Source: Myxococcota bacterium (lineage in GTDB: Bacteria; Myxococcota_A; Polyangia; Nannocystales; Nannocystaceae). From it: DNA of 64,000 bases. The position numbers were made by a program, and so were the translations under genes. Where the stretch lies: assembly GCA_039028615.1 (NCBI GenBank), contig JBCCHT010000019.1, forward strand, positions 128,001 through 192,000, written 5' to 3'. Below, piece after piece: positions 28,438 through 47,432 of the stretch (position 1 is its first letter; each line of letters starts with the position of its first letter). The notes under the pieces are model-generated. The model searched no databases, was not told where the DNA came from, and worked only from the letters and a program-made list of their open reading frames with translations.

Positions 28438-29577
28438 TCAACCGGGGTGGAGCAGGCCTTCGCCCATGTGGACGAGGTCTTCGAGGGTCGACGGCGGAGG
28501 GTCACGGCGTTCGACGACGGCGACGGGAACCTGCGGGTAGCGCTGCCGCAGGTGCTCGAGGATCCGTTGGCCACGGTCGGCTTGTCGGCGGGCGCCGTCG
28601 TAGGCCGACCGCAGAGCACCCATGGCCGCGTCGGCTTCGGCCTCTCCCACGTGGGCGACCACCGTGGGTCGCACCTGCGCGTCGACGGGAGCCTCGGGCA
28701 AGGTGGGCAGCACGCGATTGAGCACGATGCCGTCGACGTTGAGCCCTCGCTCGGCGATGACATCGATGAAGCCCTCGGCCTCGCGCGCGGAGAAGTCGGT
28801 GGCCGCGGTCGCGAACACGGCCCCGGTCTCCTTGGAGCGCATCAGCGTGGCCACATCGCCCGCCCGACGACGGAACTCGCCGAGCACGGCGGAGAACTCC
28901 TTGAGGAAGGCCCCCAGCTCGCCGATGAAGGAGCCGCCGCCCATCGACTCGAGGGTCTTGAGCAGCACGCCGCCGCCCAGCCCCATGAGCTTGAGGCCGA
29001 GGCGTCCGGTCCCGGCGAGGAAGCGCCCGGCCGGGTTGTTGATGAGCTCCTCGATCCGGGAGGGCGCGTCGATGAAGTCGAGCGCGTTGGCGGTGGGCGG
29101 GGTATCGAGCACGATGAGGTCGTAGCGCCCCTCGGCGTGCAGCATGTGGACGCGGGCGGTGGCCGCAAACTCGAGCGCCCCACCCAGGTGCTGCACCGTC
29201 GCCTGGTAGATGGGGTTGGCGAGCATGCGCGCGGCGGCGGCGGTGTCCTTGGAGTAGGCCCGTACGATCTCGTCGAACACGCGCTGGGTGTCGAGCATCA
29301 GGCAATCGAGCGAGATGCCCCCGGGCGCCTGCACGGGCACGATGCTCCCCGCGGCGCTGCCTTGGGCCGGATCGAGCCCCAGCGCCTGCGCCAGGCGGCG
29401 GGACGGATCGATGGTCAACACGAGCACCCGTCGGCCCCCCGATGCAGCGGCCAGACCGAGCGCCGCCGCCACCGTGGTCTTCCCCACGCCGCCCGGTCCC
29501 ATGCACAGCAGGACCCTGCGCTGGGGGGAGATCTGGAGCCGATGCCCGGCGTTGCTCACAGCCGCGGCTTTTACCAC
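28438..29577 (-). CDS. ArsA/Get3-like anion-transporting-type ATPase (subunit B-like)
   Basis: CMGPGGVGKTT, LTIDPSRRLAQALG, DLIVLDTPPTANALDF, IVLNRV. Confidence 0.9.
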   Translation of the reverse strand: MVKAAAVSNAGHRLQISPQRRVLLCMGPGGVGKTTVAAALGLAAASGGRRVLVLTIDPSRRLAQALGLDPAQGSAAGSIVPVQAPGGISLDCLMLDTQRVFDEIVRAYSKDTAAAARMLANPIYQATVQHLGGALEFAATARVHMLHAEGRYDLIVLDTPPTANALDFIDAPSRIEELINNPAGRFLAGTGRLGLKLMGLGGGVLLKTLESMGGGSFIGELGAFLKEFSAVLGEFRRRAGDVATLMRSKETGAVFATAATDFSAREAEGFIDVIAERGLNVDGIVLNRVLPTLPEAPVDAQVRPTVVAHVGEAEADAAMGALRSAYDGARRQADRGQRILEHLRQRYPQVPVAVVERRDPPPSTLEDLVHMGEGLLHPG

Positions 29578-29617
29578 GAGTCCCGCCCCGGCGAGGGCTC
29601 TGGTACGCTCCGCCGCA

Positions 29618-30160
29618 GTGGGGCGCGCACAGCGTTACGAAGTCGTCGTCGAGGGTCATCCCCATGCGGTCAGCGTGGAGCTGGACAGTGCGGGTCAGCC
29701 CGTGCGGGTGCAGGTCGGTGACACGAGCTGCGCAGTCGCGCTCGGAGCCGACGACGCGATCGTGGTCCGCCCCGACACGGGCGACAGCGCACAGCACGTG
29801 GTGCACTTGAGCCCCGGGGGCCGACCGACGCAAGCGATCGTCTCGGGCGACCTGCTCGGGCTCGAGGTCCGCAGCGCCCAAGAAGCCGCCCTCGAGGCTG
29901 CGCTCGCGGCCGCGGGCGGAGGCGCGGGCGGAGGCTCCATCGAGGCGCCCATGCCCGGACGCGTGGTCCGAATCCTGGTCACCGAAGGTCAGGAGATCGA
30001 CGCCAACGCGCCGCTGCTGATCGTCGAGGCCATGAAGATGGAAAACGAGGTCCGCAGTCCCATCGCGGGCATCGTTCGCACCATCGCCGTCGAAGAAGGC
30101 CAGGCCGTGGACGCCGGCCAGCTGCTGTGCGAGCTGAGTCAGCCCGAGGCTTCGAGCTGA
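29618..30160 (+). CDS. Biotin carboxyl carrier protein (biotin-attachment domain)
   Basis: APMPGRVV...LLIVEAMKMENEVRSP; start (GTG) approximate. Confidence 0.88.
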   Translation: MGRAQRYEVVVEGHPHAVSVELDSAGQPVRVQVGDTSCAVALGADDAIVVRPDTGDSAQHVVHLSPGGRPTQAIVSGDLLGLEVRSAQEAALEAALAAAGGGAGGGSIEAPMPGRVVRILVTEGQEIDANAPLLIVEAMKMENEVRSPIAGIVRTIAVEEGQAVDAGQLLCELSQPEASS

Positions 30161-31107
30161 GCCAGTAGCTGCTCCAGCGCGGGACGGTCGCACACGCCGT
30201 CCCAGCACCAGGGCATGGTCAGCAACGATCCCGCCGCGCCTTGGCGCGCCGCGTCTTCGTCGACCCACTGCTGCACCACCTCGCGATGACGACGGCTGGT
30301 GCGTGCGATGGAAGAGGTCGTGGAGAGCATGCCGGCTACCGCTGCACCGCCCGCGGAGTCGGCCGCGGGTGCGGACAGCTCGGGTACATCGGGCGGCCAC
30401 ATGCCGTTGACCACGATGGTCTCGATCGCGATGTTCCGGTCGCGGCGCAGCGCCGCCCCCAGCTCGCCCAGCTCGGTCAGCGGCCAGCGCTCGGGCAAGC
30501 CGACCAGCACCGCTTCGGTGGCCTGCGGATCGGTGAGCGTCTCGATCATCAGCCGCGCCTCGCTGGGCAGGGGCCCGGCCGGGATGGCATCGATGATCGC
30601 CTGCGGCACGCCGACGGTGTAGAGCAGGTGCCCGGTCGCGGGCCCGTCGAAGATCACGGTGTCGAAGGCATCGCCGCGGGCGGCCTCGTGCCACGCCTTG
30701 CCGAACACGGCGAAGTCGTCGAGCCCGGGGATCGCCTGAAGCAGACGACGCACGATGCGATTGTCGAAGACGGCGGCCGACACGCGCTCACTGCGCACGA
30801 TCATCGCCCCGTACTCGCGTAAACACACACGAGGCACGAGCCGCTGGATGTGCAGCCCGCCGCCGACGGCGTGGACCGTGTCGGGCAACGACGGTGCACC
30901 GAGCATCCAGCCCAAGCGGTCGTCGTGCCCGGTGGTCGCGACCAACACTCGACGCCCGCGAGCGGCGAGGGCCAACCCCAGCAAAGCGGCCACCGTGGTC
31001 CGACCCACGCCCCCCTTGCCGCTGACCACGATCAGGCGACGCGTCGCGAGACGGTCGAAGGTCGCGGCGGGTGAGGCCGCCCCGACGGCCCGGCCAGGCG
31101 TGGACAT
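30139..31107 (-). CDS. ArsA/Get3-like ATPase (subunit A-like)
   Basis: VSGKGGVGRTT, IPGLDD, IFDGPATGH, LPERWPLTE, IVVN. Confidence 0.88.
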   Translation of the reverse strand: MSTPGRAVGAASPAATFDRLATRRLIVVSGKGGVGRTTVAALLGLALAARGRRVLVATTGHDDRLGWMLGAPSLPDTVHAVGGGLHIQRLVPRVCLREYGAMIVRSERVSAAVFDNRIVRRLLQAIPGLDDFAVFGKAWHEAARGDAFDTVIFDGPATGHLLYTVGVPQAIIDAIPAGPLPSEARLMIETLTDPQATEAVLVGLPERWPLTELGELGAALRRDRNIAIETIVVNGMWPPDVPELSAPAADSAGGAAVAGMLSTTSSIARTSRRHREVVQQWVDEDAARQGAAGSLLTMPWCWDGVCDRPALEQLLAQLEASG

Positions 31108-34071: not shown

Positions 34072-34181
34072 CGCCGCATGGTCGGTTTCGGACATCGCGC
34101 AGCCGCGGCGCCCCATTGTGGTCGGCGCCCGCAGACCGACGAGCCATTCGCGAGCGTTGTCGCTATCATGGTGCGTCTCGC

Positions 34182-36923
34182 ATGAGCACCGATCCCCCCA
34201 ACGACTCCGAGCCCGAGTCCGAGTCCTCGGGCGCCGACCAACCCGCCGATCTGCTGCGGGTCGAAGGGTTGGTGCCGCTCCCGGTCGCGGCCGCCGTGGA
34301 CGGGGGCTCCGAGGACGAAGACGAGGACGAGTACTCGGGCGGCTACGGGGTCGAGGCGCTGCCGCGAGGCACTCAGCTCGGCCGCTACGTGCTGCTGGGT
34401 CGCGTTGCCGGGCGCGAAGGCGCGGTGGTCTACGGGGCCTACGATCCCGAAGAAGACCGCAAGGTCCTGCTCAAGCTCTTCGACCCGGGGGGTGACGACG
34501 ACGACGAGGACGCGGCCCAGGCGGTGCGGCTCGAGCTCGCCCGCCAAGCGCAAGGCGTCGCCAAGGTCTCGCACCCCTGCGTCGAGCAGATCCACGAGGT
34601 CGGCGTCTACGACCACTGGGTCTTCCTCGCCACCGAGTTCGTCGACGGCCTCAACGTACGCCAATGGATGGAGGTCCGCGACGACCCCTTCCCCTGGCCC
34701 GAGGTGCTGCGAGTGTTCCGCGAGGCGGGCCGAGGCCTCGCCGCGGCACACAAGCAACGCATCGTGCACCGCGACTTCCGTCCCTCCAACGTCCTCATGG
34801 GCAAGGAGGGCCGCCTCGTCGTCATCGACTTCGGTCTCGCGCCCGAGGTCGAAGAAGAAGACGACGACATCGAGGTCTCCGCGCTGCGCGAGTCGCTGTC
34901 CGGGGCCGCGCTCGAGGACACCCAGCCCGGCCCGGCCGGCATGGCGGGCACCCCCGCCTATATGGCGCCCGAGCAGCACCTCACCGGGCAGGCCGACGCT
35001 CGCTCCGACCAGTTCAGCTTCTGCGTCGCGATGTACGAAGCGCTCTACGGCGAGCGTCCGTTCTCCGGCAACCGCCCTCGCGCCATCGCGCTCGAGGCGG
35101 CCAAGCACAAGGTGCGGCCCGCTCCGCCCGACTCCAACGTCCCCGCCTGGCTGCGCGCCATCGTGATTCGCGGCCTGAGCCCGCGCCCCAAAGATCGATT
35201 CCCCACCATGGAGGCGCTGCTGCGCGAGCTGGCGCGAGACCCCTCGGCCCGGCGTCGCCGCTGGCTGTGGGGCGCCGCGGGAGCGGCCGGCATGATGGGC
35301 GTCATCGGCCTCACCGCGTGGGCCTTCGAGGCCGACCAAAACGCCTGCGACGACACCAGCAGCGCCCTGGCCGAGGTGTGGACCATCGAGCGACGCGAGG
35401 CGCTGGGCGAGGTGTTCACCGCCACCGAGCGGCAGTGGGCCGAGCCGACCTGGCGCTACACCGAGTCCAAGCTCGACGCGTGGTCGAGCGTATGGGCCGA
35501 CTATAGCCGCTTGGCCTGCCAGGCCACCCGGGTGTGGGGCGACGCGGCCGAGAAGACCTACGAGCTGCGGGTCGCCTGCCTCGACCGTCACCTCACCGAG
35601 TTCGATGCCACCCTCGAGGCACTCGCCGAGGTCGACGGACCCATGCTCGACCGCGCCCATGCGCTGGCCCAGCGCCTGCCCGATCCGCGGCGATGTACCG
35701 ACACCAGCGCGCTGTTCGTGCTCGGTCAGCCCCCCGAGGACAGCCGCGAGCAGATCGACGGCCTGCATCGCCAGATGGCCGGGCTCGAGGCGCGCTTGGT
35801 CCTCGGCCAGGCCGGCGCGGTGTCGCACGAGATCGGCGGCCTTCTACCCGAGGCCGACGCCACCGAAAACGACGCCCTCATCGCACGCGGACACTTGCTG
35901 CGGGGGCGAGCCGAGCTGGCCAAGGGCAACCCCGAAGCCGAGGCCCTGCTGCACGGCGCGGCCCAAGAGGCCCTGCGTGCGGGCGACACCAGCCTCGCCG
36001 CCATCGCGTGGCGCGGTCGCGTGGATGCCTTGTTGCAGCGAGACCGGGCGGCCGAAGCAGGCGCGCTGGTCGACTACATCGACGCAGTGATGGCCAACAA
36101 GCGCTTCGAGTGGCTGCGCCCCGATCTCGCCATCGCGCGTGGTCGCGCCGAACTGGCCCAGGGCCGCTCCGCGGAGGCGCTCGGTCACTTCTACGCCGCC
36201 ATCGAACTCGAAGAGGGCCGCAACGACGCCGATCCCTTGCGGCTATTGCCGGCGTGGCTCGGCCAGGCCGAGGTGCTCGACGCCCACGAGGACACCCAAG
36301 AGGCCATCGCGCCCATCAAGACCGCGCTCGACGTCACCCGCAACACGCTCGGGCCCCAGCACCCCGCCGCGGTCGAGCTCCTGCAGCGCCTCGGGCAGCT
36401 CCAGCAACGCGAGGGGCTGCTCACCGACGCCCGGCCGAACCTCGAGCAAGCGCTCGAGATCACCCGCATGGCCGGCAACGGCGATCCGGGGCGCATCGCC
36501 GAGCTCGAGACCTCGCTCGGCCGAATCCTGCAGACCGAAGGCGACGTCGCTTCGGCTGCGATCCACTTCGAGCGCGCCTACGAGCTGGTGCAGGGCAAGA
36601 CCCCGACCGGGGCCTCGTTCCGTGCCGGGCTCCGCGTCGCCCGGGCTCGCCTCGAGCTGCGACGCAAAGCCGAGGCCCGCACCCTGCTCGCGCAACTGCT
36701 CACGACCTACCCGCCCGGTGCTCCCATCGGACGCGACGGCCCCACCTCCTTCGAGCTCGCCCAGGCCGAGCTGCTGCTGGCCACCCTGGTGTGGGACGAC
36801 GGCGAAGCCGAGCGCGCCCGCGAGCTGGCCACCCGCAGCATCGCGCGCCCCGGTGAGAGCCTCGAGCAGGGGATCCATCGCGACGAAGCGCAGCGCTGGC
36901 TCGAAGAACACCCTGCCCCATGA
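34182..36923 (+). CDS. Ser/Thr protein kinase with TM segment and C-terminal TPR region
   Basis: LGRY, VLLK, HRDFRPSN, DFGLA, GTPAYMAPE, DQFSFC; TM; TPR helices (LGPQHP). Confidence 0.9.
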   Translation: MSTDPPNDSEPESESSGADQPADLLRVEGLVPLPVAAAVDGGSEDEDEDEYSGGYGVEALPRGTQLGRYVLLGRVAGREGAVVYGAYDPEEDRKVLLKLFDPGGDDDDEDAAQAVRLELARQAQGVAKVSHPCVEQIHEVGVYDHWVFLATEFVDGLNVRQWMEVRDDPFPWPEVLRVFREAGRGLAAAHKQRIVHRDFRPSNVLMGKEGRLVVIDFGLAPEVEEEDDDIEVSALRESLSGAALEDTQPGPAGMAGTPAYMAPEQHLTGQADARSDQFSFCVAMYEALYGERPFSGNRPRAIALEAAKHKVRPAPPDSNVPAWLRAIVIRGLSPRPKDRFPTMEALLRELARDPSARRRRWLWGAAGAAGMMGVIGLTAWAFEADQNACDDTSSALAEVWTIERREALGEVFTATERQWAEPTWRYTESKLDAWSSVWADYSRLACQATRVWGDAAEKTYELRVACLDRHLTEFDATLEALAEVDGPMLDRAHALAQRLPDPRRCTDTSALFVLGQPPEDSREQIDGLHRQMAGLEARLVLGQAGAVSHEIGGLLPEADATENDALIARGHLLRGRAELAKGNPEAEALLHGAAQEALRAGDTSLAAIAWRGRVDALLQRDRAAEAGALVDYIDAVMANKRFEWLRPDLAIARGRAELAQGRSAEALGHFYAAIELEEGRNDADPLRLLPAWLGQAEVLDAHEDTQEAIAPIKTALDVTRNTLGPQHPAAVELLQRLGQLQQREGLLTDARPNLEQALEITRMAGNGDPGRIAELETSLGRILQTEGDVASAAIHFERAYELVQGKTPTGASFRAGLRVARARLELRRKAEARTLLAQLLTTYPPGAPIGRDGPTSFELAQAELLLATLVWDDGEAERARELATRSIARPGESLEQGIHRDEAQRWLEEHPAP

Positions 36924-38089
36924 CCTCGTCTCGTCGCTGCCTCGCCACGCCCGGCTTGCTCGTCGCGCTCGGCCTGAGCCTCGCATGTGAACCTCCCGGC
37001 GCCACCGCGCCCAGTCGCGTGCCCGTGCGGCCCGACGCGGTGCTCAACGTGCCCTATCCCGTCAGCGAGCCCGAGCGCATCGAAGGGGCCGGACGCAAGA
37101 CCCTCTCCGAGGCGCAGTTCGTGTTCATCAGCCTGGGCGCGCCGCCCGACGAGCGCGACCACGCCCTGCCCGAGCGCGTGGCCTCCGAGGGGCCCATGCT
37201 GCTCGCCCATCACTTCGGCCCCGTGGGCACGCACGCCACGGCCTGGCAGGAGCTTCGCCGGCTGGCCTTCGGTCGCGGCATCCCGCCGCGCGGCCAGGCG
37301 CAGCCCGTTCCCGCCGAAGAGGTCGAAGCACTCGGGTTGCAGGCGCCCGCGTCGAGCGTGTGGCTCGTCGGTCCCGACGGCAGCTGCCGCGCCGAAGTCG
37401 GGGAGCCGCTGGTCGGCGTCTACGACGGCCCCGAGGACACCGTCGCCGTGGGCTACCGCCTCGAGGGATGCTCCGGCCGACGGTGGGCCCAGGTCGGCAT
37501 CATCTCCGATGGCATCCCCGTCGACTTTCGCTGGGTCCCCGCCGAGCTGTCCTCCGAGCAGATCCTCGCCTACGGCAGCGAGTGGGACGACCCGCTCCCT
37601 ACCCTCGTCGACCCGCCCGCGTGGTCGCACGCGATGACGCCGGGCTTCGACCAAGTCCGCGTGCACGAGATCCCCGACGTCTCGCCGCGCGTGCTGCAGC
37701 TGCACCGCGCCTGGACCTCCGAGCATCCCGATCGCACGGAGCGAGCATGGTGCGAGATCGAGGCCGCGTGGAGCCACACCGAAGGCTGGTACAACGGCCG
37801 ATGGATCGATCCCGTGCCCTGGGTCCCCGACGCCACCGACCCCTTCCTGCTCGGCGCGTTCGTCAACGGCGAGCAAGTCGACGCCGTGCTCTATGACGAT
37901 CGCTTCGACGGCCTGGTCGTCGTGCCGCCGGGGCCGCTCGACGACATGAACGACGCGAGCGCATGGACCCAAGTGTTCGTGCCCACCGGGCACTATCACG
38001 ACGACGAGCTCACCCGTTGGGGCGTGGAGCCGGCTCGCGGGGCTCTGCCGCTGGGTCCGCGATGCGAAACCGACGGCGACTCGCCATGA
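36920..38089 (+). CDS. Hypothetical lipoprotein
   Basis: Lipobox SLAC; ATGA overlaps at both ends. Confidence 0.75.
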   Translation: MTSSRRCLATPGLLVALGLSLACEPPGATAPSRVPVRPDAVLNVPYPVSEPERIEGAGRKTLSEAQFVFISLGAPPDERDHALPERVASEGPMLLAHHFGPVGTHATAWQELRRLAFGRGIPPRGQAQPVPAEEVEALGLQAPASSVWLVGPDGSCRAEVGEPLVGVYDGPEDTVAVGYRLEGCSGRRWAQVGIISDGIPVDFRWVPAELSSEQILAYGSEWDDPLPTLVDPPAWSHAMTPGFDQVRVHEIPDVSPRVLQLHRAWTSEHPDRTERAWCEIEAAWSHTEGWYNGRWIDPVPWVPDATDPFLLGAFVNGEQVDAVLYDDRFDGLVVVPPGPLDDMNDASAWTQVFVPTGHYHDDELTRWGVEPARGALPLGPRCETDGDSP

Positions 38090-38805
38090 GTTCGGTCGTG
38101 GTGAGGCCAGCCGCTGCGCCCCGCTGGGGCCGTCGACGGCTGCTGTGGTCGCTCGTCGCGATGGCCGGCTGCGCGAGCGCCAAGGGCCCGCCGAAGGCCC
38201 CCGACGGCGCGGCCGAGGTCGTGCTCTCGATGCAGGGCATCGACTGCCAGAGCTGCGGACAGACGGCGGTCGAGGCCCTCACCGCCACCCCCGGGGTCTA
38301 TGTCGCCTCGTTCGAGCGCGACGCGGTCGAGCTTCACGTCGCCTACGATGCCGCCCAGGTCGACCCGCCGCAGCTGCTGGCGGTCGTGCACGGGCTCGGC
38401 TACCGGGCAATACGAGGGCCGGGCCAGGGCGCCTACACCTCGGAGGTCGTCTTCGCCCCCGGGCTCGACGTCCAGCAGATTTCCACCGACGGCGAGCTGG
38501 TCGACCTCGAGGCCTTCCTCGTCCCCGGCAAGGTCACCGTCTTCGACTATCACGCCGTGTGGTGCGGGCCCTGCAAAGAGGTCGACCGCCACATGCTGGC
38601 CCTGCTCGAGCGCAACGACGACATCGCCCTGCGCAAGCTCGACGTCGTCGACTGGAGCAGCGCGCTCGCGACCAAGCACCTCGGGAAGGTGGCCACCCTG
38701 CCCTACCTCATCGTGCACGGCCGCAGCGGCAAGCCCATCGCCCAGATCGCCGGCCTCGACCTGGTCGCCCTCGACCGCGCCATCGAGCGAGGCCGTCGTC
38801 GATGA
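38086..38805 (+). CDS. Lipoprotein with heavy-metal-associated (HMA) domain fused to a thioredoxin domain
   Basis: Lipobox MAGC; GIDCQSC (HMA); DYHAVWCGPCK (Trx); LPY cis-Pro motif. Confidence 0.85.
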   Translation: MSSVVVRPAAAPRWGRRRLLWSLVAMAGCASAKGPPKAPDGAAEVVLSMQGIDCQSCGQTAVEALTATPGVYVASFERDAVELHVAYDAAQVDPPQLLAVVHGLGYRAIRGPGQGAYTSEVVFAPGLDVQQISTDGELVDLEAFLVPGKVTVFDYHAVWCGPCKEVDRHMLALLERNDDIALRKLDVVDWSSALATKHLGKVATLPYLIVHGRSGKPIAQIAGLDLVALDRAIERGRRR

Positions 38806-39869
38806 GGTTCCGGCGGCTCACCTTGTCGCTCGGCTTGGCGATGGGCCTGACGGCGGCGGGCTCTCCCGACATCGCCCTGGCCGGCCCCTGAGCGGGTTGA
38901 AGCAACCCCAACCTCCCGGGTGGAGGTACGACCGCATATCAGACTCCGATGGATCGGGGCCGCCTTCGCTTCGGCGCCTCGATGCTCTACTCGTATATCA
39001 ACGCCGCCCACGACGTGGACCCGGAGCAGTTCGAGCCCGGCATTCCCTTCGAGGACCAGGCGGCCGAGCATCAGCTCGGCATCAACATGCTCGAGTGGGA
39101 CGTGGACGCGCAGTTCGGCGTGCACCGTCGCTTCGCCTTCGAGCTGATGCTGCCCATCCGCACCACGATCATCGATGCGTCCTTCGCCGACGCCCAGGGT
39201 CGGCCGCTGCCAAACTTCCAGAGCATTCACCACCGCGACGAAGTCATCGCGGGCGTGGGTGACCTGACCTTCGGCGGCCGCATCGGCCTGGTGCTCCCGG
39301 AGAACGTACCCCGCTGGACCCTGGCCCTGCGCACGGGCGTTTCGCTGCCCACGGGCAACACCGAGCCGGACCCCTTTGCCCTCGGGGCGGCCGGCCAAGA
39401 GCACCAGCACATGTTCTTCGGCTCCGGGACCGTCGATCCGCGGATCGGCTTCGACACCAACGTGGCCTTCGATCGCTGGGGCCTGGTGGGGTGGTCCCTG
39501 CTCGAGGCGCCGCTGTACTCGAACAAGCACGGCTACCGCGGCAGTACCGTCGTCGTCGGCGGCATGGGAGCGCAGTCGGGCTTCGGCCTGCAGCGCTGGT
39601 CGTTTCTCGTGCAGCCCGAGGTCTACTTCGAGACGCCCGCGCGCTGGAACGACACCCTCGCTCGCAACAGCGGCCGTACCAGCCTCATCGCGACCGCGGG
39701 AGCCTTCTTCTTGCCGACTCCGCAGTGGCGCCTGCATGCGCTGGTCAAGGTGCCCTACGCCACCTTCGCTCGCGGCGGGCAGCTGCGCTGGCCCATCGTC
39801 GCGCTCCTGGGCTTCAGCTACACCGTCCAGGTCGGCAAGCCCGAGCGCGACGGCCATCACCACGGCTGA
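38802..39869 (+). CDS. Exported outer-membrane beta-barrel-like protein with N-terminal U-A-G-U; candidate di-selenocysteine selenoprotein (355 aa)
   Basis: ATG overlaps the upstream stop (ATGA); signal peptide ending ALA; in-frame TGAs at 38889 and 38898; frame continues into ORF 38949-39869 (GVGD, GVSLPTG, GSGTVDP); C-terminal HHH. Confidence 0.75.
38911..38927 (+). promoter_or_regulatory. Candidate bacterial SECIS hairpin
   Basis: ACCTCC-CGGGT-GGAGGT; loop starts 16 nt after the second TGA and 25 nt after the first; G in second loop position. Confidence 0.6.
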
Positions 39870-39880
39870 CGCCGGATCGC

Positions 39881-40729
39881 TCAGGTCCCCGACACCAGGC
39901 GCTGCAGAGCGAGGGTGGCCCCGAAGGCCAGCACGGCGAAGGGGATGAGGTCGGGCCGCCCCGCGTGCGCGACGAGCAGCGCGTCGACCAGCGCGATGCC
40001 GGCAATGAGCGAGATGATGCCCGTGCGGATCGAGCCCGAAGCCCGTCCTCGCACGAGGCGAAGGCAACGAAGCACCCACAGGCAGAAGCCTGCGAACAGG
40101 CCTTTGACCAGCATGGGCCCGAGCACCAGGCTCCAGGTCACCACCGCGGGGCTCCACAAGCCCGCCAGCGGGCCGTAGCGCACCAGGGCGTTCGTGTTCT
40201 CGTGCGCCGCGGCAAAGGTCAGCCCGAGTACGTACAGCAGCAGCACCGCCGCGCCGAGCCACACGGCGACGGGCAGCGTCCAGGTCACGGACAAGGCCGC
40301 GGTCAGGTACAGACCCACCCGGCACGCCCCCATGATCACGGGCCCGAAGGGGTTGCCCTTGTGGTTGACGTTGTAGGCGACGATGAGACCGATGGTGCCC
40401 GCAGCACCCAGCAGCGGTCCCAGGCCGAGGCTTCCCGCCACGACCAGGGCGAGCACGAAGAGCAGGCCGACCGCACGCAGGACCTCGCCGGCTCGGACCT
40501 CGCCCGAGGGGATCGGCCGCTCCGCTCGTTCCTTGGCGTCGATCTCGGCGTCGCAGTAGTCGTTGAGGAACATGCCGCCGACGTACAGCAGCGAGGCCAT
40601 GAGCCCCAGCCGACCGTACACGCTGGGCGTGAGGGCTCCGCCCGCCAGCACCAGGCCCGCCAACACGTTGCTCCACACGGTGGGGAGGTTGGACACGCGA
40701 CCGAGTTTGAGCGCCGTCGAGAGTTTCAT
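39881..40729 (-). CDS. eboC: UbiA-family prenyltransferase, EboC
   Basis: LGRVSNLPT, GMFLNDYCDAEIDAKERAERPIPSG, AYNVNHK, MGACR; ebo context. Confidence 0.88.
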   Translation of the reverse strand: MKLSTALKLGRVSNLPTVWSNVLAGLVLAGGALTPSVYGRLGLMASLLYVGGMFLNDYCDAEIDAKERAERPIPSGEVRAGEVLRAVGLLFVLALVVAGSLGLGPLLGAAGTIGLIVAYNVNHKGNPFGPVIMGACRVGLYLTAALSVTWTLPVAVWLGAAVLLLYVLGLTFAAAHENTNALVRYGPLAGLWSPAVVTWSLVLGPMLVKGLFAGFCLWVLRCLRLVRGRASGSIRTGIISLIAGIALVDALLVAHAGRPDLIPFAVLAFGATLALQRLVSGT

Positions 40730-41994
40730 GGGGTGCGGTCTTTCGAGGTCAGAGGAACGCGGCAGTGATCGAGGACCCAGCGTAGCTCCCGAGTGATGGC
40801 ATCGGTCAGCGGCACGTCGCGCAGCGTGGGCGGAAGCACGCTCCACGTATAGGTCTCGACCTCCACGTGATCGCATAGCCCCGCGCCGAGGACCTCGTGC
40901 AGCAGCGCCTCGAGCACGCCGTCGGTATTGCGAAAGGGCGGGATCTCGGACTGGAAGACGGGCACGTGGTAGTGCACGCGCCAGCTTTGCGCGGGGCACT
41001 CGCCCGCCGCGTGAGCGGCCATGGCCTGCGGTAGGTCGAGGAAGCGGCGGAGCGAAGCTCCCTGCTCCGAAGTCTCGTCGAGTCGGGCGACGACCTGATG
41101 GAGGTAGACGTCCTCCGCGAACGCCTTCAGGTGCTCGAGCGCCGACGCGTCGACCGGCTCGATGTGGAGCCCGGTCGTGGCCTGGAGCTTCGCCACCCGC
41201 ACGCCCGCCGCACGCAGGGCCGCGACGCTCCGCGCAGGGTCTTCGTACTCGACCGCGGCATGGCAGGTATCGAGGCACAGGCCCAGGTGGTAGCGCAGCG
41301 CCTCCTCGGCTTTCGACGGGCTCAGCCCGGTGAGCGCCACCATGCGCCGCGTGGCCTCGGCCGACCACAGGCGTGCCTCGAAGAACGCAATGGCCTCGGC
41401 GGTGGTCTCGAGCATGCACTCGGGCTCGGGCTCGAGGGCCAACGCGATGTCGACCCCGCGCTCTTCGGCGTGGCGCCACAGCATCGCCGCGGTCCGCAGC
41501 AGGTGCTCGACGAGTGCATCCGGGGGCGCCGACGGGTCGTAGCCCTCACTCCGCGGACCGACGAGCGGCCGAAAGCCTCCTGGGACCGTGCTGATCGAGC
41601 CTCGGACCCCCGCGGGCAACAGCCGGGCGAGGATCGTGGCGAGCACCTCGGTATAGCGAAGCCGCTCGGCCGTGCTCCAGTCGGGCTGGTAGACCGACTC
41701 TTTGACCGGCTGCGCGTGGAAATCCCCGTGCGGGAACCCGTTGAGCGTGAACACGTAGAGCCCGCGCTCGTCGAGAGCATCGGCGAACGCATCGAGTCCC
41801 CCGGGTGCGGCCATGAGTTCATCCGCCGCGCGGGCGGACAACCGCAGGCCGATGCCGAAGGGGGCATCGGGACTGAGCGCCGCCTTCACGGTGGGCGCAT
41901 GCGTCAGCACGTTATCGCGGGTCTCCGCCCAGCTCTCCCCCGGGTGGATGTTGCTGCAGTACGTCAGGTGTACTGCGCCATCGAGAATGCGCAT
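40726..41994 (-). CDS. eboE: Metabolite traffic protein EboE (TIM barrel)
   Basis: LTYCSNIHPGESW, GIGLRLS, TLNGFPHGDFH, VKESVYQPDW, LEPEP, WRVHYHVP, EVETYTW. Confidence 0.92.
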   Translation of the reverse strand: MRILDGAVHLTYCSNIHPGESWAETRDNVLTHAPTVKAALSPDAPFGIGLRLSARAADELMAAPGGLDAFADALDERGLYVFTLNGFPHGDFHAQPVKESVYQPDWSTAERLRYTEVLATILARLLPAGVRGSISTVPGGFRPLVGPRSEGYDPSAPPDALVEHLLRTAAMLWRHAEERGVDIALALEPEPECMLETTAEAIAFFEARLWSAEATRRMVALTGLSPSKAEEALRYHLGLCLDTCHAAVEYEDPARSVAALRAAGVRVAKLQATTGLHIEPVDASALEHLKAFAEDVYLHQVVARLDETSEQGASLRRFLDLPQAMAAHAAGECPAQSWRVHYHVPVFQSEIPPFRNTDGVLEALLHEVLGAGLCDHVEVETYTWSVLPPTLRDVPLTDAITRELRWVLDHCRVPLTSKDRTP

Positions 41995-41996
41995 GG

Positions 41997-43199
41997 TCAG
42001 CCCGCGCGCGCGTGGGTCGGAATGGACTCGACGACCGAGGTCATGAGCGCATGGTCGATCTCGTGGATCTCGAAGCCCTGGCCGAGCCCCTCGAGCAAGG
42101 TCAGGGTCAGCTCGCCCCCCAGGTGCTCGCGAAACTCCTCGAGACCCACGAGCAGCTCGAGCTCCCCCTTGGGCGCGCGCCTCAGCTGCGCTTCGTGCCA
42201 CGTGGGCAGGCCCAGCGCGACCAGCAGGCTCTCGATGCGCTGCGCGGCCTCGGCGTCGAGCCGACCGATCTCGACCGAGTAACGGCTGTCGATGGTGATG
42301 CCGATGGACACCGCCTCGCCGTGACGCAAGCCGTGCCCGCTGAGCACCTCGAGCTTGTGCGCCGACCAGTGGCCAAAATCCAGGGGCCGCGCGCTGCCGT
42401 TTTCGAATGGGTCCCCACCGTCGCGAATGTGCTCGAGGTGGAGCTCGGCACAGCGGCGGATCATGTAGGCGGTGGCATCGGGCTCACCCACGCGCAGGTC
42501 GTGAGCGTGGGCCTCCATCCACTCGAAGAACGCGACGTCCTTGATCAGCGCGACTTTCACCGCCTCGGCCATTCCCGCCAAGCGGTCGCGCTCGCTGAGG
42601 CTGAACACGAAGTCGAGATCGTTGATGACCGCCGACGGCGGCGCAAAGGTCCCCAACGCGTTCTTGTGACCGAACGCATTGATGCCGTTCTTCACGCCGA
42701 CCCCGGCATCGTTTTGCGCGAGCACCGTAGTCGGCAATCGCACGACTCGAATGCCGCGGTGCGCCAGTGCTGCCGCATAGCCCGCCGCGTCGAGCACCGC
42801 GCCTCCACCGATGATCATCACCGTGCAGTGGCGATCGAGATGGGCGGCAAAAAACGCCGCCTGCAGCTCGTGGATCAACGCGGGATCGTTCTTCGCCGCC
42901 TCGCCTCCGACCAAGGATCGCGGGGGCGCGGCGAGCTCGAGCACATCGGCGTGATGGTCGAAATACGCCTGGATTCGGGCATTCAGCTCGGGCCAGGCCT
43001 CGAGCACCCCGCTGTCGACGACCACGAAGACCCGACACTTGCGGCCCTCGGACGACCCCGCTTGCTCGACCAGGGTCGTGCGCAGCACGAGGTCGTGGGG
43101 GGCCAACACGCCGCGGGTGAACACCACCGGGTAGTCGAACACCACCCCTACGCGTTGCGCCCAACGGTGGGTCACGGCCCCGCCCATGTGCCCGTCCAT
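41997..43199 (-). CDS. eboD: 3-dehydroquinate synthase-like sugar-phosphate cyclase, EboD
   Basis: GGEAAKN, IGGGAVLD, HRGI...PTTVLAQNDAGVGVKN, AEAVKVALI, RPLDFGHWSAHKLE, HGEAV. Confidence 0.88.
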   Translation of the reverse strand: MDGHMGGAVTHRWAQRVGVVFDYPVVFTRGVLAPHDLVLRTTLVEQAGSSEGRKCRVFVVVDSGVLEAWPELNARIQAYFDHHADVLELAAPPRSLVGGEAAKNDPALIHELQAAFFAAHLDRHCTVMIIGGGAVLDAAGYAAALAHRGIRVVRLPTTVLAQNDAGVGVKNGINAFGHKNALGTFAPPSAVINDLDFVFSLSERDRLAGMAEAVKVALIKDVAFFEWMEAHAHDLRVGEPDATAYMIRRCAELHLEHIRDGGDPFENGSARPLDFGHWSAHKLEVLSGHGLRHGEAVSIGITIDSRYSVEIGRLDAEAAQRIESLLVALGLPTWHEAQLRRAPKGELELLVGLEEFREHLGGELTLTLLEGLGQGFEIHEIDHALMTSVVESIPTHARAG

Positions 43200-43238
43200 C
43201 GCGGCGGATGGTAGCTCAGGCCCAAGCAGTGGTCCACA

Positions 43239-43673
43239 ATGCCCGCCATGGACCCGAGCGAGCAGAACCAATCGCAACGATGGCTACAGCGCTTCCTCGA
43301 AGAACACCAAGCGGTGGCGGGCACGGTCCATCGACTCGACCGACAAACCCAGGATTTGCACCTCGAAGCCGCGGTCAACATCCCCCCCAAGGTGCAGGAC
43401 GCGACCCGGGTGATTCCCCGAGGCAAAGGCATGGCGGGTCTCGCACTCGAGCGCCATCGCCCCGTGTCCACCTGCAACCTCGCGACCGACGAAGGCAACC
43501 CCGACGTGCGCCCCGGGGCACGCGCGGTGGAAGCCGCGGCCGCAATCGCGCTGCCCGTCGATGACGACGCGGGTCAGGTGCGGGCCGTGGTGGGCATCGC
43601 CTACGCGAGCGAGCGGCCGATCGACGACGCTCTGCTCGCTCCGCTGCAGGCCGCGGTCACCACCCTGCCCTAG
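43239..43673 (+). CDS. Stand-alone GAF domain protein
   Basis: IPRGKGMAGLA...PV..CNL; IALPV...VVGIA. Confidence 0.8.
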   Translation: MPAMDPSEQNQSQRWLQRFLEEHQAVAGTVHRLDRQTQDLHLEAAVNIPPKVQDATRVIPRGKGMAGLALERHRPVSTCNLATDEGNPDVRPGARAVEAAAAIALPVDDDAGQVRAVVGIAYASERPIDDALLAPLQAAVTTLP

Positions 43674-44380
43674 GACTTCGACAGACCGAGCACGTACTGC
43701 AGGTCGTCGGAGAGCGCCCGACCGGCCGCGGTGCGCTCGCTGGCGTAGCCCCGAGCCATCCGTTCGAGCTCGGCGCCATGACGCTGCTCGATGCCCACGA
43801 TCTCGCGCGCGGGCGCCCCGATGAACAACGCCTTGAGCACCATCTGGTTGAAGCTCGCCTCGGAGAAGTGCTCGGCCGGATACGGGTTTTTTGTGGCCAA
43901 GGCCGAGAACACCGACACCGCGTTGGTGCGACAGGCATCGACCGCGAGGTCGACGAAGCGTTCGGGTCCCGGCAAGTAGCTCAGGCTGCGCAGGAGGCTC
44001 TCCTGCTCGCTCAGCTCGCCGCTGCGGAACAGACGCGTGACCAGCCCCACGTGCTCGTCACTCGAGAGCGTATCGAGCTGCGCGTGGAGCAAGGCCAGTC
44101 GCGCGAGGTCGAACGCGCGCCAGCTCGGCACGGCCATGGCGTCCGGCAACCCATGCGCCGCGGCAGCCTCGGCATCGATCTCGATCGACGTCGCGCCCGT
44201 CTTGCGGCGCGCCCGGGCAAAGACGATCCGCAGCGTACGCTCCTGGGGGCTGCCCTCGGTGGGCCCGTCGTCGCCGAAGCTCGGGAGGGTCTCGTCGAGC
44301 CAGGTCTTGGCCGGCTGTAGGCCCTGCCCTTCCAGCAATGCGAGCACACCGACGACCAGCGGGGTCCGAGGGGAGACCAT
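43670..44380 (-). CDS. eboA: EboA domain protein
   Basis: ARLALL, GELSEQESLLRSL, DACRTN, NPYPA, FNQMVLKALF, YASERTAAGR. Confidence 0.9.
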   Translation of the reverse strand: MVSPRTPLVVGVLALLEGQGLQPAKTWLDETLPSFGDDGPTEGSPQERTLRIVFARARRKTGATSIEIDAEAAAAHGLPDAMAVPSWRAFDLARLALLHAQLDTLSSDEHVGLVTRLFRSGELSEQESLLRSLSYLPGPERFVDLAVDACRTNAVSVFSALATKNPYPAEHFSEASFNQMVLKALFIGAPAREIVGIEQRHGAELERMARGYASERTAAGRALSDDLQYVLGLSKS

Positions 44381-44406
44381 CGCGGCGACGCTATCACAGC
44401 CCCGCG

Positions 44407-45042
44407 TCAGGCCTCGTCAGCGCCGGACTCGAACCGACGGCCCCACACCCACGCCAAACCGGCGAGCCCGAGCACCGCGCCGAAGATCAACAACGAGTCG
44501 TCGAACGACACGCCCCAGGCTCCGACCAACGCGAACGCCACCGCCGCCGGGATCGACCCCACTGCGCTCGCGACGAGCATCTTGGTCCACCCGAACGATG
44601 AAGTCCCGGCGAGAATGGCTACGCTTTCGGCGACGATGGGCACGGGTCGCGTCGCGATGATGGCGACCATGCCCCAGCGCTGCAACAACGCGTCGGCGCG
44701 GGCGCGCTGCTGCTCGGTCACCAGACGATCCAGCCACCGTCCCCCGCGGCGACCGATGCCGAAGCCGACGGCCGCCGCCGCCACGCTCCCCACCAGCGAC
44801 AACGCAGCGCCGAGCACCGCACCGAAGAGCACCCCGTGGGCGATCATGATCACGGAGGCGGGCACGGGGATCAGCACGTCGGCGACGAGCAAGCCGACGC
44901 CCACCAACGCCGCGAGTACGCCTCCCCCCGACATCGCCTGGTTGGGGTCTCGCAATACCGAAATGTCGAAGGCTTCGACCGCACCGAAGAGGGCCAAGAA
45001 GAACATCGCCATCCCGGCGAAGATCCCGACGTAGCGCCCCAT
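44407..45042 (-). CDS. DedA/VTT (TVP38/TMEM64) family membrane protein
   Basis: LLVADVLIPVPAS, G.LFG..LG, RWG..AII.TRPVPIVAE. Confidence 0.87.
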   Translation of the reverse strand: MGRYVGIFAGMAMFFLALFGAVEAFDISVLRDPNQAMSGGGVLAALVGVGLLVADVLIPVPASVIMIAHGVLFGAVLGAALSLVGSVAAAAVGFGIGRRGGRWLDRLVTEQQRARADALLQRWGMVAIIATRPVPIVAESVAILAGTSSFGWTKMLVASAVGSIPAAVAFALVGAWGVSFDDSLLIFGAVLGLAGLAWVWGRRFESGADEA

Positions 45043-45120
45043 GCGGGCGGACCATAGCACCTCCCCTGCTTCGACCTGCGTGCTACGGTGCCGCCCGAAC
45101 TTCGCGCCCGAGACGCTCCG

Positions 45121-46032
45121 ATGCCGCTTTTCGATCCTCATATCCACATGACCTCCCGGACCACCGACGACTACGAGGCCATGGCGGCGGCCGGGATCGC
45201 GGCCATCGTCGAGCCGGCGTTCTGGCTCGGTCAGCCGCGGACCCACGTCGGCTCCTTCGAGGACTACTTCCTGTCCCTGCTCGGCTGGGAACGCTTCCGC
45301 GCCAGCCAGTTCGGCATTCGCCACTTCTGCACGATGGGGCTCAACCCCAAAGAGGCCAACAACGAGGCCTTGGCCAAGGGGGTCATGGATCTCCTGCCTC
45401 TGTACCTCGAAAAGGAAGGCGTGGTCGCGGTCGGAGAGATTGGCTACGACGACATGAGCGACGCGGAGCACGAGCTGTTCGCGGCGCAGGTTCGGCTGGC
45501 GGTGGAGTTCGAGCTCCCGGTCCTCATCCACACCCCGCACCGAGACAAGCACGCGGGCACGCTTCGCACCCTCGAGCTCATGCGCGAGCTGGGCTTTCCC
45601 CCTGAACTCACCCTCGTCGATCACAACACCGAAGAGACCCTCGGCGCCGTGCTCGAGTCGGGGTGCTGGGCGGGGCACTCCATCTATCCCGAGACCAAGA
45701 TGGACGAGCACCGCATGGTCGCGCTGGTCCAGAAGTACGGACCCGAGCGCATCCTGGTCAACAGCGCGGCCGACTGGGGCGTCAGCGATCCACTCAAGGT
45801 GCCCAAGACCGCCGCCGCCATGCGCGAGGCGGGCATCTCCGAGGCCGCCATCGAGCAGATCTGCTGGAACAACCCAGTGCGGTTCTTCGCCCAGAGCGGC
45901 CGGCTCGATCTCGAAGAGGTCGACACCGCGCTGAGCGTCGATCAGCGCGAGCTGTGGCAGGGCAACTCCGTGCTCCGCGGGCAGTCGCCGCGCATCGACG
46001 AAGGGGACTCGGGCGCAGGAAACCCGGCATGA
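45121..46032 (+). CDS. eboB: TatD-family hydrolase, EboB
   Basis: FDPHIHMTSRTTDDY, EPAFWLGQPR, GLNPKEAN, VGEIG, IHTPHRDK, DHN, NSAADWG.SDPL. Confidence 0.92.
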   Translation: MPLFDPHIHMTSRTTDDYEAMAAAGIAAIVEPAFWLGQPRTHVGSFEDYFLSLLGWERFRASQFGIRHFCTMGLNPKEANNEALAKGVMDLLPLYLEKEGVVAVGEIGYDDMSDAEHELFAAQVRLAVEFELPVLIHTPHRDKHAGTLRTLELMRELGFPPELTLVDHNTEETLGAVLESGCWAGHSIYPETKMDEHRMVALVQKYGPERILVNSAADWGVSDPLKVPKTAAAMREAGISEAAIEQICWNNPVRFFAQSGRLDLEEVDTALSVDQRELWQGNSVLRGQSPRIDEGDSGAGNPA

Positions 46033-47432
46033 ACCGAACGGTCGTCCTCGACGTCGTCGGCCTCACCCCCAGCCTGCTCGGCCCCGACACGCCCCGCCTG
46101 CAGCAGTTTGCCGAGCGGGGCACCCTGCGACCGATCCAGACGATCACCCCGGCCGTCACCTGCTCGGTGCAGTCGACCTTCGTGACCGGGGCGCTGCCGC
46201 GCGAGCACGGCTGCGTCGCCAACGGCTGGTACTTCCGCGATCTGGCCCAGGTGTGGCTGTGGCGTCAGGCCAACGCGCTGGTCGGCGGCAACAAGCTGTG
46301 GGATCTGGCCCGCGCTCGCGACGATCGCTTCCGCTGCGCCAAGTTGTTCTGGTGGTACAACATGTACGCGGACGTGGACTGGGCCGTGACCCCACGTCCG
46401 ATCTACCGGGCCAACGGGCGCAAGCACCCCGACGTGCACACCAGCCCGGTCGGGCTGCGTGAGCGGCTCGATGGCGAGCTGGGCACCTTCCCCCTGTTCA
46501 ACTTCTGGGGACCGAACGCCAACATCACCTCCTCGCAGTGGATCGCCGACTGTGCCTCGCTCATGGAGCGCTGGCACGAGCCCACGCTGAGCTTGGTCTA
46601 CCTGCCGCACCTGGACTACGCCCTGCAGAAGTACGGGCCGGGTGCCCCCGAGAGCCGAGCCGCCCTGCGCGAGATCGATACGCTCTGCGGAGAGCTCATC
46701 GAGCGCTTCGAGGCGGCCGGGCTTCGCATCGTCGTGCTGTCCGAGTACGGCATCACCCCCGTCACCGGGCCCGTCCACATCAATCGAGCCCTGCGCGAGG
46801 CCGGCCTGCTCGGCTGGCGCGAAGAGATGGGCGAGGAGCACTTCGACGCGGGCGCGTCACAGGCCTTCGCGGTGGCGGACCATCAGATCGCCCACGTCTA
46901 CGTGCGAGACCCGGGTCAGATCGCCGAGGTCAAAGCGCTGCTCGAGAAGCTCGATGGCGTGGACGAAGTCCTCGATCGGGAGTCCATGGCGGCCTACGGC
47001 CTCGACCATCCACGCTCGGGCGAGCTGGTGGCCTTGAGCAAGCCCGAGCGCTGGTTCTCCTACTACTACTGGCTCGACGACGCGCGCGCCCCCGACTACG
47101 CCCGCACCGTCGACATCCATCGCAAGCCGGGCTACGACCCCGCCGAGCTGTTCCTCGACCCGCAGTTGCGCGCCCCCATGCTGCGCATCGGGTCGTATCT
47201 GCTGCGCACCAAGGTCCTGGGCCAGCGCGCCCTGCTCGACGTCATTCCGCTCGACGGCAGCCTCGTCCGCGGCTCCCATGGCCGGGTCACCGCGAGCGCC
47301 GAAGACGGGCCGCTGTTCATCACCAACGCCCCGGAACAGCTCCGCGACGCCAATGGTGCCCTGCTCGGCGACAGCCAGAGCCTCGAGGCCACGGCCGTAC
47401 AGGGGGTGCTCCTGCGTCACCTCTTCGACTGA
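46029..47432 (+). CDS. eboF: Alkaline phosphatase / nucleotide pyrophosphatase family protein, EboF
   Basis: VLDVVGLT, PAVTCSVQ, NGWYFRD, YLPHLDY, SEYGI, DHQIAH, DIHRKPGYDP, GSHG. Confidence 0.92.
   Translation: MNRTVVLDVVGLTPSLLGPDTPRLQQFAERGTLRPIQTITPAVTCSVQSTFVTGALPREHGCVANGWYFRDLAQVWLWRQANALVGGNKLWDLARARDDRFRCAKLFWWYNMYADVDWAVTPRPIYRANGRKHPDVHTSPVGLRERLDGELGTFPLFNFWGPNANITSSQWIADCASLMERWHEPTLSLVYLPHLDYALQKYGPGAPESRAALREIDTLCGELIERFEAAGLRIVVLSEYGITPVTGPVHINRALREAGLLGWREEMGEEHFDAGASQAFAVADHQIAHVYVRDPGQIAEVKALLEKLDGVDEVLDRESMAAYGLDHPRSGELVALSKPERWFSYYYWLDDARAPDYARTVDIHRKPGYDPAELFLDPQLRAPMLRIGSYLLRTKVLGQRALLDVIPLDGSLVRGSHGRVTASAEDGPLFITNAPEQLRDANGALLGDSQSLEATAVQGVLLRHLFD

Follow-up and report, generated by a model that had tools for sequence, protein, structure and literature searches.

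In the outer-membrane channel Pput2725 the N-terminal 14 residues occlude the lumen of the barrel (accessible text of PMC4493636), and in FapF the plug loops back to the periplasm (accessible text of PMC5557850). Among bacterial selenoproteins the U-x-x-U motif, in which U is selenocysteine (Sec), occurs in three families of Table 1 of PMC13188914, and the available part of PMC13582414 proposes a single downstream selenocysteine insertion sequence (SECIS) for the UxxU of group 4 [NiFe] hydrogenases. Sec is extremely uncommon in transporters according to the available portion of bioRxiv 10.1101/2022.07.06.499078. The gene described here lies at 38802..39869 on the forward strand of a 64,000-nucleotide stretch (the window) from a Myxococcota bacterium of the Nannocystaceae (contig JBCCHT010000019.1, positions 128,001 to 192,000) and encodes a predicted exported barrel with two in-frame TGA codons, almost certainly read as Sec, at its mature N terminus.

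Reading frame and the two UGA codons

The features of the gene are arranged as follows.

38802..39869, + strand: full gene, 355 amino acids with U30 and U33; signal peptide, putative UxxU plug segment, and predicted 12-stranded barrel of the COG4313/PF13557/FapF fold
38802..38882, + strand: predicted export signal peptide of 27 amino acids with an A-L-A end; predicted mature N terminus G28-P29-U30
38889..38891, + strand: TGA, probable first Sec codon (U30); TGA in 47/51 loci, TGC/TGT in 4/51
38898..38900, + strand: TGA, probable second Sec codon (U33); TGA in 49/51 loci, TGC/TGT in 2/51
38911..38927, + strand: SECIS-like hairpin, 6-bp stem, 5-nucleotide loop CGGGU with G at loop position 2, inside codons N-L-P-G-G-G
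38961..39830, + strand: predicted barrel strands 1-12, with conserved H70, H90, H143, H144, H201, H203, E147, D154, and E277
39855..39863, + strand: C-terminal HHH of the barrel protein, varying among homologs
39867-39869, + strand: terminal stop TGA of the barrel gene

The sequence CGATGAGG at 38800-38807 places the start ATG at 38802 over the stop of the upstream gene (ATGA), and the in-frame translation from 38802 gives MRFRRLTLSLGLAMGLTAAGSPDIALA-G-P-U30-A-G-U33-SNPNLPGGG, which joins the 306-amino acid open reading frame (ORF) called at 38949 and has the U-x-x-U at mature positions 3 and 6. This hidden start, the signal peptide, and the continuous frame, together with the CxxC spacing of the two TGAs and a hairpin loop 25 and 16 nucleotides after them, had been put forward in a preliminary description made from the DNA alone, and re-reading the sequence and its coordinates gives the same picture. 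A contig from run X1 spans the stretch with 0 differences, an agreement that is not independent because X1 may be the source of the same DNA. A hydrophobic stretch lies ahead of the motif in 52/52 sequences, and Ala, Gly, or Ser is found three residues before the first U/C in all 52, the signal peptides being judged with our own heuristic.

The loci compared number 55, with 22 from genomes and 33 from metagenomes; L024, L049, and L057, which end before the motif, and L059, which gives no usable match, were left out of the motif counts. In the remaining 51 loci the codons are TGA-NNN-NNN-TGA in 47, TGC..TGA in two (L053 and L054), and Cys..Cys in two (L025 and L055), and TAA or TAG is found at neither motif position. 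The motif-bearing loci span Myxococcota, Acidobacteriota (Thermoanaerobaculia), and metagenomes, with one labeled as a proteobacterium, and identity extends down to ~32%. The preliminary description had looked to homologs lacking Cys or TGA at these positions as evidence against it, and TGA or Cys occupies both positions in every locus that reaches the motif; nor do the relatives suggest the recent pseudogene or sequencing error it had considered, the close ones carrying TGA, not TGC, plus the same hairpin.

A search of 61 related genomes matched the barrel family in 20, and the 20 loci read in this survey comprise 11 UxxU (including the window itself and five repeats of earlier loci), three CxxU, one frameshifted at a gap, four distant barrels with Cys-rich N termini, and one spurious match. 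No paralog of the barrel is present in the same genome. On a quick, unrooted version of the tree with 22/56 forks open, the Cys/Sec states change at least seven times, with no direction given. A protein search of databases returned 213 matches; among the 120 listed none exceeds 87% query coverage and most are called at ~300 amino acids. An N-terminal CxxC is present in 9/266 database proteins, and 3/266 start at a Met right behind the second UGA position. Two thioredoxin-fused homologs (P0210 and P0255) keep only the second Cys (QATC-SNPGLP), and the UxxC form was not seen in the loci or database proteins examined, so the second position seems the more important. The distant barrels L074, L075, L077, and L078 of related genomes have the mature N termini CSVCGC, CASC, CAVCEC, and CC, respectively, hinting that Cys-plugged barrels may form a wider group to which the Sec family belongs as one branch.

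It is scarcely credible that the two UGAs are true stops, whether in a pseudogene, through a sequencing error, or between a short leader and a cytoplasmic 306-amino acid product from 38949. Databases do call nearly all homologs at about 300 amino acids, TGA is the commonest terminal stop of the family genes (27/52), and the hairpin has no energy excess, but the same two TGAs are kept to ~32% identity across two phyla and swap only with Cys, never with TAA or TAG, and true stops would leave the codon lock of the hairpin described below unexplained. A barrel without a signal peptide could not be exported. A global reassignment of UGA was rejected on the same 27 genes that end in TGA, as the preliminary description had argued from the use of TGA as a normal stop in the window. 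Compared across the loci, both UGAs are shown to be sense codons at Cys-equivalent positions, and there is very little doubt that U30 and U33 are selenocysteine.

SECIS-type hairpin and selenocysteine machinery

In the bacterial SECIS model (section 5 of PMC13188914, available part) a stem of 4-16 bp closes a loop of 3-9 nucleotides with a G in the first two loop positions, placed 16-37 nucleotides from the UGA and with a minimum free energy of -7.5 or lower. The hairpin in the barrel gene is formed by the arms ACCTCC (38911-38916) and GGAGGT (38922-38927) around the loop CGGGT (38917-38921), which starts 25 nucleotides past the first TGA and 16 past the second, and with -8.9 kcal/mol it falls within the published limits for both UGAs on direct comparison with those criteria. 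The folding energy is no better than chance (z of -0.10, 0.45, and -0.07; 81-130 of 200 shuffles fold equally well) and ordinary for GC-rich DNA, so the case for a SECIS rests on comparison and conservation.

Among the 49 distinct sequences with TGA as the second codon, the codons of the hairpin are locked relative to each gene's own usage, with Leu as CTC in 49/49 (18.2 expected), Pro as CCG in 48/48 (21.2 expected), and Gly as GGA in 47/49 (7.3 expected). The five inner stem pairs are kept in 45-48 of 48 distinct rows, and slid control positions pair at 37-58% compared with 86% for the hairpin. Compensatory change is seen in six cells of the 48-row alignment (0/500 shuffles), which is supporting and not decisive because the rows are related, which inflates the shuffle test, and covariation is limited to two pairs. 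Both Cys/Cys loci lack the stem and the NLPGGG peptide; the CxxC database proteins P0146 and P0241 retain NPNLP, so some of this peptide may be important in its own right. Counting both strands, the 12.3-Mb genome contains the core CTCCCG[GT]NNGGAG 14 times, and the copy described here is the sole one with an in-frame TGA 9-35 nucleotides ahead of it. A second local hairpin over U33 (GGGUUG/CAACCC) is missing from the consensus structure and was rejected. The alignment shows one conserved SECIS-type hairpin following both UGAs, in genomes with the Sec pathway. The preliminary description had regarded two Sec from one SECIS as unusual; a single hairpin does fit both UGAs, and UxxU with a single SECIS has already been proposed for the hydrogenases.

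In the source genome (96.7% complete) selA, selB, and selD score above cut-off, and its single UCA tRNA is the canonical tRNA-Sec (68.6 bits), completing the machinery that the preliminary description had considered necessary. Among the 61 related genomes selA is found in 38, and in 11 of the 14 genomes with the UGA form. In all three UGA-form genomes with no selA match (G013, G038, and G055) a SelD with an in-frame TGA is matched, and selB is found in two of them and tRNA-Sec in one; selA probably went unseen through gaps in the assemblies or a failed match. A reading of one or both UGAs as Cys by the SECIS-dependent tRNA-ReC (SelC*), yielding CxxU or CxxC, is very improbable. It would suit the existence of CxxU and CxxC homologs and the enrichment of tRNA-ReC in genomes with UxxU hydrogenases (about 56% compared with 2.3%, in the available text of PMC13582414), but the sole UCA tRNA here is of the canonical type, and no tRNA-ReC-like gene was found in the 96.7% complete genome, with 150 of 2303 candidates scored. 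Three GCA tRNAs are ordinary and a fourth, long call, the 95-nucleotide ARAGORN tRNA-Cys prediction at G000:C58:11064-11158, is without a T-loop consensus, CCA, or RF01852 match and probably spurious.

The genome (G000) looks selenoprotein-rich in a rough genome-wide scan, with about a dozen plausible UxxC/CxxU genes with hairpins. The CxxU candidates include C2 (CGYU), C21 (CSFU), C33 (CRYU), and C5 (CEYU), and the UxxC candidates C1/C14/C50/C18/C6 (UPIC, UTSC, UPVC, UPFC, UPAC), C68 (UPYC), C65 (UGTC), C60 (UILC), and C16 (UTGC), some of these candidates resembling AhpD, TlpA, DsbA, and Prx proteins (named by eye). The composition filter of the scan drops the barrel gene itself from the candidate table.

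Predicted barrel, partner protein, and proposed mechanism

The protein matches PF13557 marginally (23.7 bits against a gathering threshold of 22), and most homologs have no PF13557 listing. The AlphaFold2 model (137 rows, with U entered as C) has a predicted local distance difference test score (pLDDT) of 94.2 and contains 12 long strands; its residues 1-20 score 72-78. The top Foldseek matches are FapF (E of 5e-12) and then Pput2725 (2e-9), and VIA-align gives Z of 24.5 to 4rl8 (root mean square deviation of 2.7 over 249 residues, 10% identity), 23.9 to FapF, and 18.5 to autotransporters; a sequence search of solved structures returned FapF alone, at E of 0.26. Modeling and structure comparison show the product, which the preliminary description had called an exported β-barrel, to be an exported 12-stranded barrel of the predicted COG4313/FapF fold.

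Six histidines (H70, H90, H143, H144, H201, and H203), kept in at least 96% of rows, sit at the ends of strands 1-2 and in the long loops 3-4 and 5-6. These His-bearing odd-to-even loops are probably extracellular, by analogy with FapF, where the PTG motif marks the extracellular rim. The aligned ranges start at model residue 14 for 4rl8 and at 4-5 for the lumen-spanning autotransporter linkers. The C-terminal HHH emphasized in the preliminary description is present here and is variable or absent in many homologs, its place being taken by a His-rich linker in the thioredoxin-fused forms; the six loop histidines and the upstream partner gene are the stronger evidence for metal.

38086..38805, + strand: partner gene, probable lipoprotein (LVAMAG-C, lipobox read by eye) with HMA and thioredoxin domains; its stop overlaps the barrel ATG
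about 38224-38403, + strand: HMA domain of the partner (CQSC)
about 38530-38748, + strand: thioredoxin domain of the partner (WCGPC)

A homologous thioredoxin is directly upstream in 35/52 sequences and fused to the barrel C terminus in 4/52, with HMA in 25 of the upstream ones; eight of the 13 sequences with no thioredoxin partner have fewer than 600 bases upstream. WCxxC is present in 33/36 homologous proteins longer than 380 amino acids, and Cupredoxin_1 was found on 7/7 long homologs picked by eye, five of them above cut-off. The HMA domain of the partner matches NF041115 weakly (31 bits against a cut-off of 95), and no Sec-bearing HMA occurs in the 35 upstream partners read through.

The flanking ORFs of 26 loci were scanned with a heuristic ORF choice that may miss small genes. 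Metal genes lie beside eight of these loci, with MerR-MerC-HMA at L015, MerC at L021, MerR at L010, L020, and L033, a P-type ATPase and RND at L009, RND also at L010, two multicopper oxidases and RND at L054, and a CsoR-type repressor at L055; the same queries match 1.2% of random 12-kb windows of the source genome, a rough single-genome control. The neighbors are mixed, with no constant linkage to merA/merT/merP or copA/cusA in the 26 loci, and aromatic-degradation genes do not recur among the scanned neighbors. The genome carrying L009 and L010 (Myxococcales; G051) contains two pairs of HMA-thioredoxin and UxxU barrel genes, and behind each pair come a P-type ATPase-like gene and an RND pump; a recombinase-like ORF is located upstream of L009, an arrangement that suggests a mobile metal island.

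The CxxC of HMA domains and CupA-like cupredoxin domains bind Cu(I), and selenolates favor soft metals. On balance we lean toward a Sec-gated channel for soft metals of the Cu/Hg type with a periplasmic chaperone-reductase. SelB bound to the single hairpin would deliver Sec to both UGAs, and the N-terminal segment of the product would insert into the barrel and plug it, as happens in Pput2725 and FapF. A metal ion gathered by the conserved extracellular histidines would be bound two-coordinately by the selenolate pair (most likely Cu(I), though Hg(II) or a similar ion is possible), which would gate its passage, and would then be received by the periplasmic HMA CxxC or the fused cupredoxin domain, with the thioredoxin domain keeping the Se pair and the HMA thiols reduced. 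Both the diselenide and the handling of metal by the barrel are what we infer from this arrangement. The fuller proposal of an undescribed two-component envelope system in marine Myxococcota and Acidobacteriota, in which a selenolate-pair plug captures soft metals and is switched between diselenide and selenol by a dedicated thioredoxin-HMA lipoprotein, both Sec coming from one SECIS, is plausible but somewhat short of probable.

Several points weigh against a metal channel of this kind. Diselenide reduction by thioredoxin is thermodynamically uphill. An HMA match is lacking in ten upstream partners, some of which are truncated at contig ends, and no partner is matched in five loci with 700 or more bases of upstream sequence. 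Apart from the partner, no metal gene accompanies the barrel in 18/26 scanned loci or in the window. Two of the eight metal-gene loci (L009 and L010) come from one genome, the neighbors point to several metals and not to one, and the background rate derives from a single 12-Mb source genome in which the P-type ATPase query matched nothing. The placement of the Se pair is mixed, with the autotransporter-linker alignment starting at residue 4-5, the FapF plug looping back to the periplasm, and pLDDT of 72-78 in this region. The characterized COG4313 channels are linked to hydrophobic organics (available text of PMC4493636), and FapF secretes a peptide (available text of PMC5557850).

The partner gene also bears on an alternative that we regard as unlikely though worth weighing, in which the protein is a true double selenoprotein and the UxxU is a thioredoxin-driven redox switch or relay that either controls opening of the pore or carries reducing equivalents, or a thiol/disulfide substrate, through the outer membrane, the His and HMA metals being accessory. 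Thioredoxin is the most constant partner (39/52 compared with 25 with HMA), the WCxxC frequency in the long homologs points the same way, and most known UxxC/CxxU selenoproteins are redox proteins (Table 1 of PMC13188914). A redox relay, however, has no need of six invariant histidines, HMA/cupredoxin fusions, or mer/cus/CsoR neighbors, and thiol-metabolism genes do not recur among the neighbors. It is improbable that the barrel imports selenium, another chalcogen or metalloid, or an organometal and uses the Sec pair to capture it covalently or to sense selenium status. L019 does have a SelD-like (AIRS) gene 5.6 kb downstream, and no high-affinity Se transporter is known in prokaryotes according to the available part of a review (PMC13188914), but an AIRS-family neighbor is found in just 1/26 scanned loci, the family is missing from most selA-bearing relatives (20/61 genomes match compared with 38/61 with selA), and the idea is circular in that Se would be needed to import Se.

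Surroundings and relation to known systems

The barrel gene ends a chain of four genes joined by 4-nucleotide overlaps at 34116-39869, of which the first two do not recur beside homologs.

34116-36923: Ser/Thr kinase-like gene, identified by eye
36920-38089: lipoprotein-like ORF, unmatched in Pfam and NCBIfam

Immediately downstream (39881-47432) is an ebo-type cluster, mostly on the minus strand and converging on the barrel gene, with an EboC-like prenyltransferase, EboE (above cut-off), 3-dehydroquinate synthase, an EboA domain, and, by eye, a TatD-like and a phosphatase-like gene; it does not recur beside barrel homologs. Tandem ArsA/GET3-like ATPases are located at 28438-31107 of the window, and their best matches, BagB and BagA, fall below cut-off. 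Elsewhere the genome has a single further HMA domain, at the end of a presumably SO_0444-like membrane protein that contains two Cys-bearing motifs and is encoded directly behind a CsoR-type repressor (G000:C9:179700-181250).

The window barrel, L006, and L012 have no match at E of 0.1 among the NCBIfam release 20 models. The PF13557/COG4313 family is not in the 119-family Table 1 of PMC13188914, which lists two single-Sec outer-membrane barrels, and the available BSepDB text (PMC13326102), with a possibly incomplete supplement, has no barrel, transporter, PF13557, or COG4313 entry. A full-text literature search found no paper joining selenocysteine with COG4313, PF13557, Phenol_MetA_deg, or FapF. 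The family is uncatalogued in the sources checked; an earlier mention is possible, as the families of Haft and Tolstoy 2025 were covered only via the Table 1 rows (PMC13188914) and the NCBIfam models.

A profile finds 247 clusters at 50% identity (E up to 1e-30, counted regardless of Sec state), suggesting a large hidden selenoprotein family, and gene callers cut the signal peptide and both Sec from nearly all close members. Selenium would gain a new role if a Sec pair forms part of a channel plug, and the COG4313 fold would be extended from organics and amyloid secretion toward metals. With a very short, nearly invariant SECIS and natural UxxU, CxxU, and CxxC states, the family allows a direct test of whether a single bacterial SECIS can serve two UGAs, and one carrier, Paraliomyxa miuraensis SMH-27-4 (L006), is in culture.

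A double-Sec barrel with a thioredoxin(-HMA) partner combines known kinds, a selenoprotein and the COG4313 fold, UxxU and Sec barrels each being known separately. The closest structural relative, Pput2725 (PDB code 4rl8; available text of PMC4493636), has the same 12-stranded barrel, and its plug lines up, from model residue 14 onward, with the N-terminal segment that precedes strand 1 here. In contrast to Pput2725, which is proposed for uptake of hydrophobic organics (same text), the present protein has a longer N-terminal segment with the UxxU, His-rich long loops, and a thioredoxin/HMA partner. FapF (PDB codes 5o65/5o67; available text of PMC5557850) is the top Foldseek match and shares the PTG motif at the base of loop β5-β6, whereas no coiled coil or fap operon is seen here and the available FapF text mentions no selenoprotein. 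The GSU2204 family (NF041027) and the FCYXU TonB-dependent receptor (NF049945) are likewise outer-membrane barrels with Sec (Table 1 of PMC13188914), but they carry one Sec each and belong to other barrel families. The bacterial UxxU selenoproteins (metal-binding NF041115, Prx-like, the FmdB family, and group 4 [NiFeSe] hydrogenases) have two Sec with CxxC spacing as here; none of them is an outer-membrane barrel, whereas in the present protein the probable Sec pair is placed at the mature N terminus of a predicted channel.
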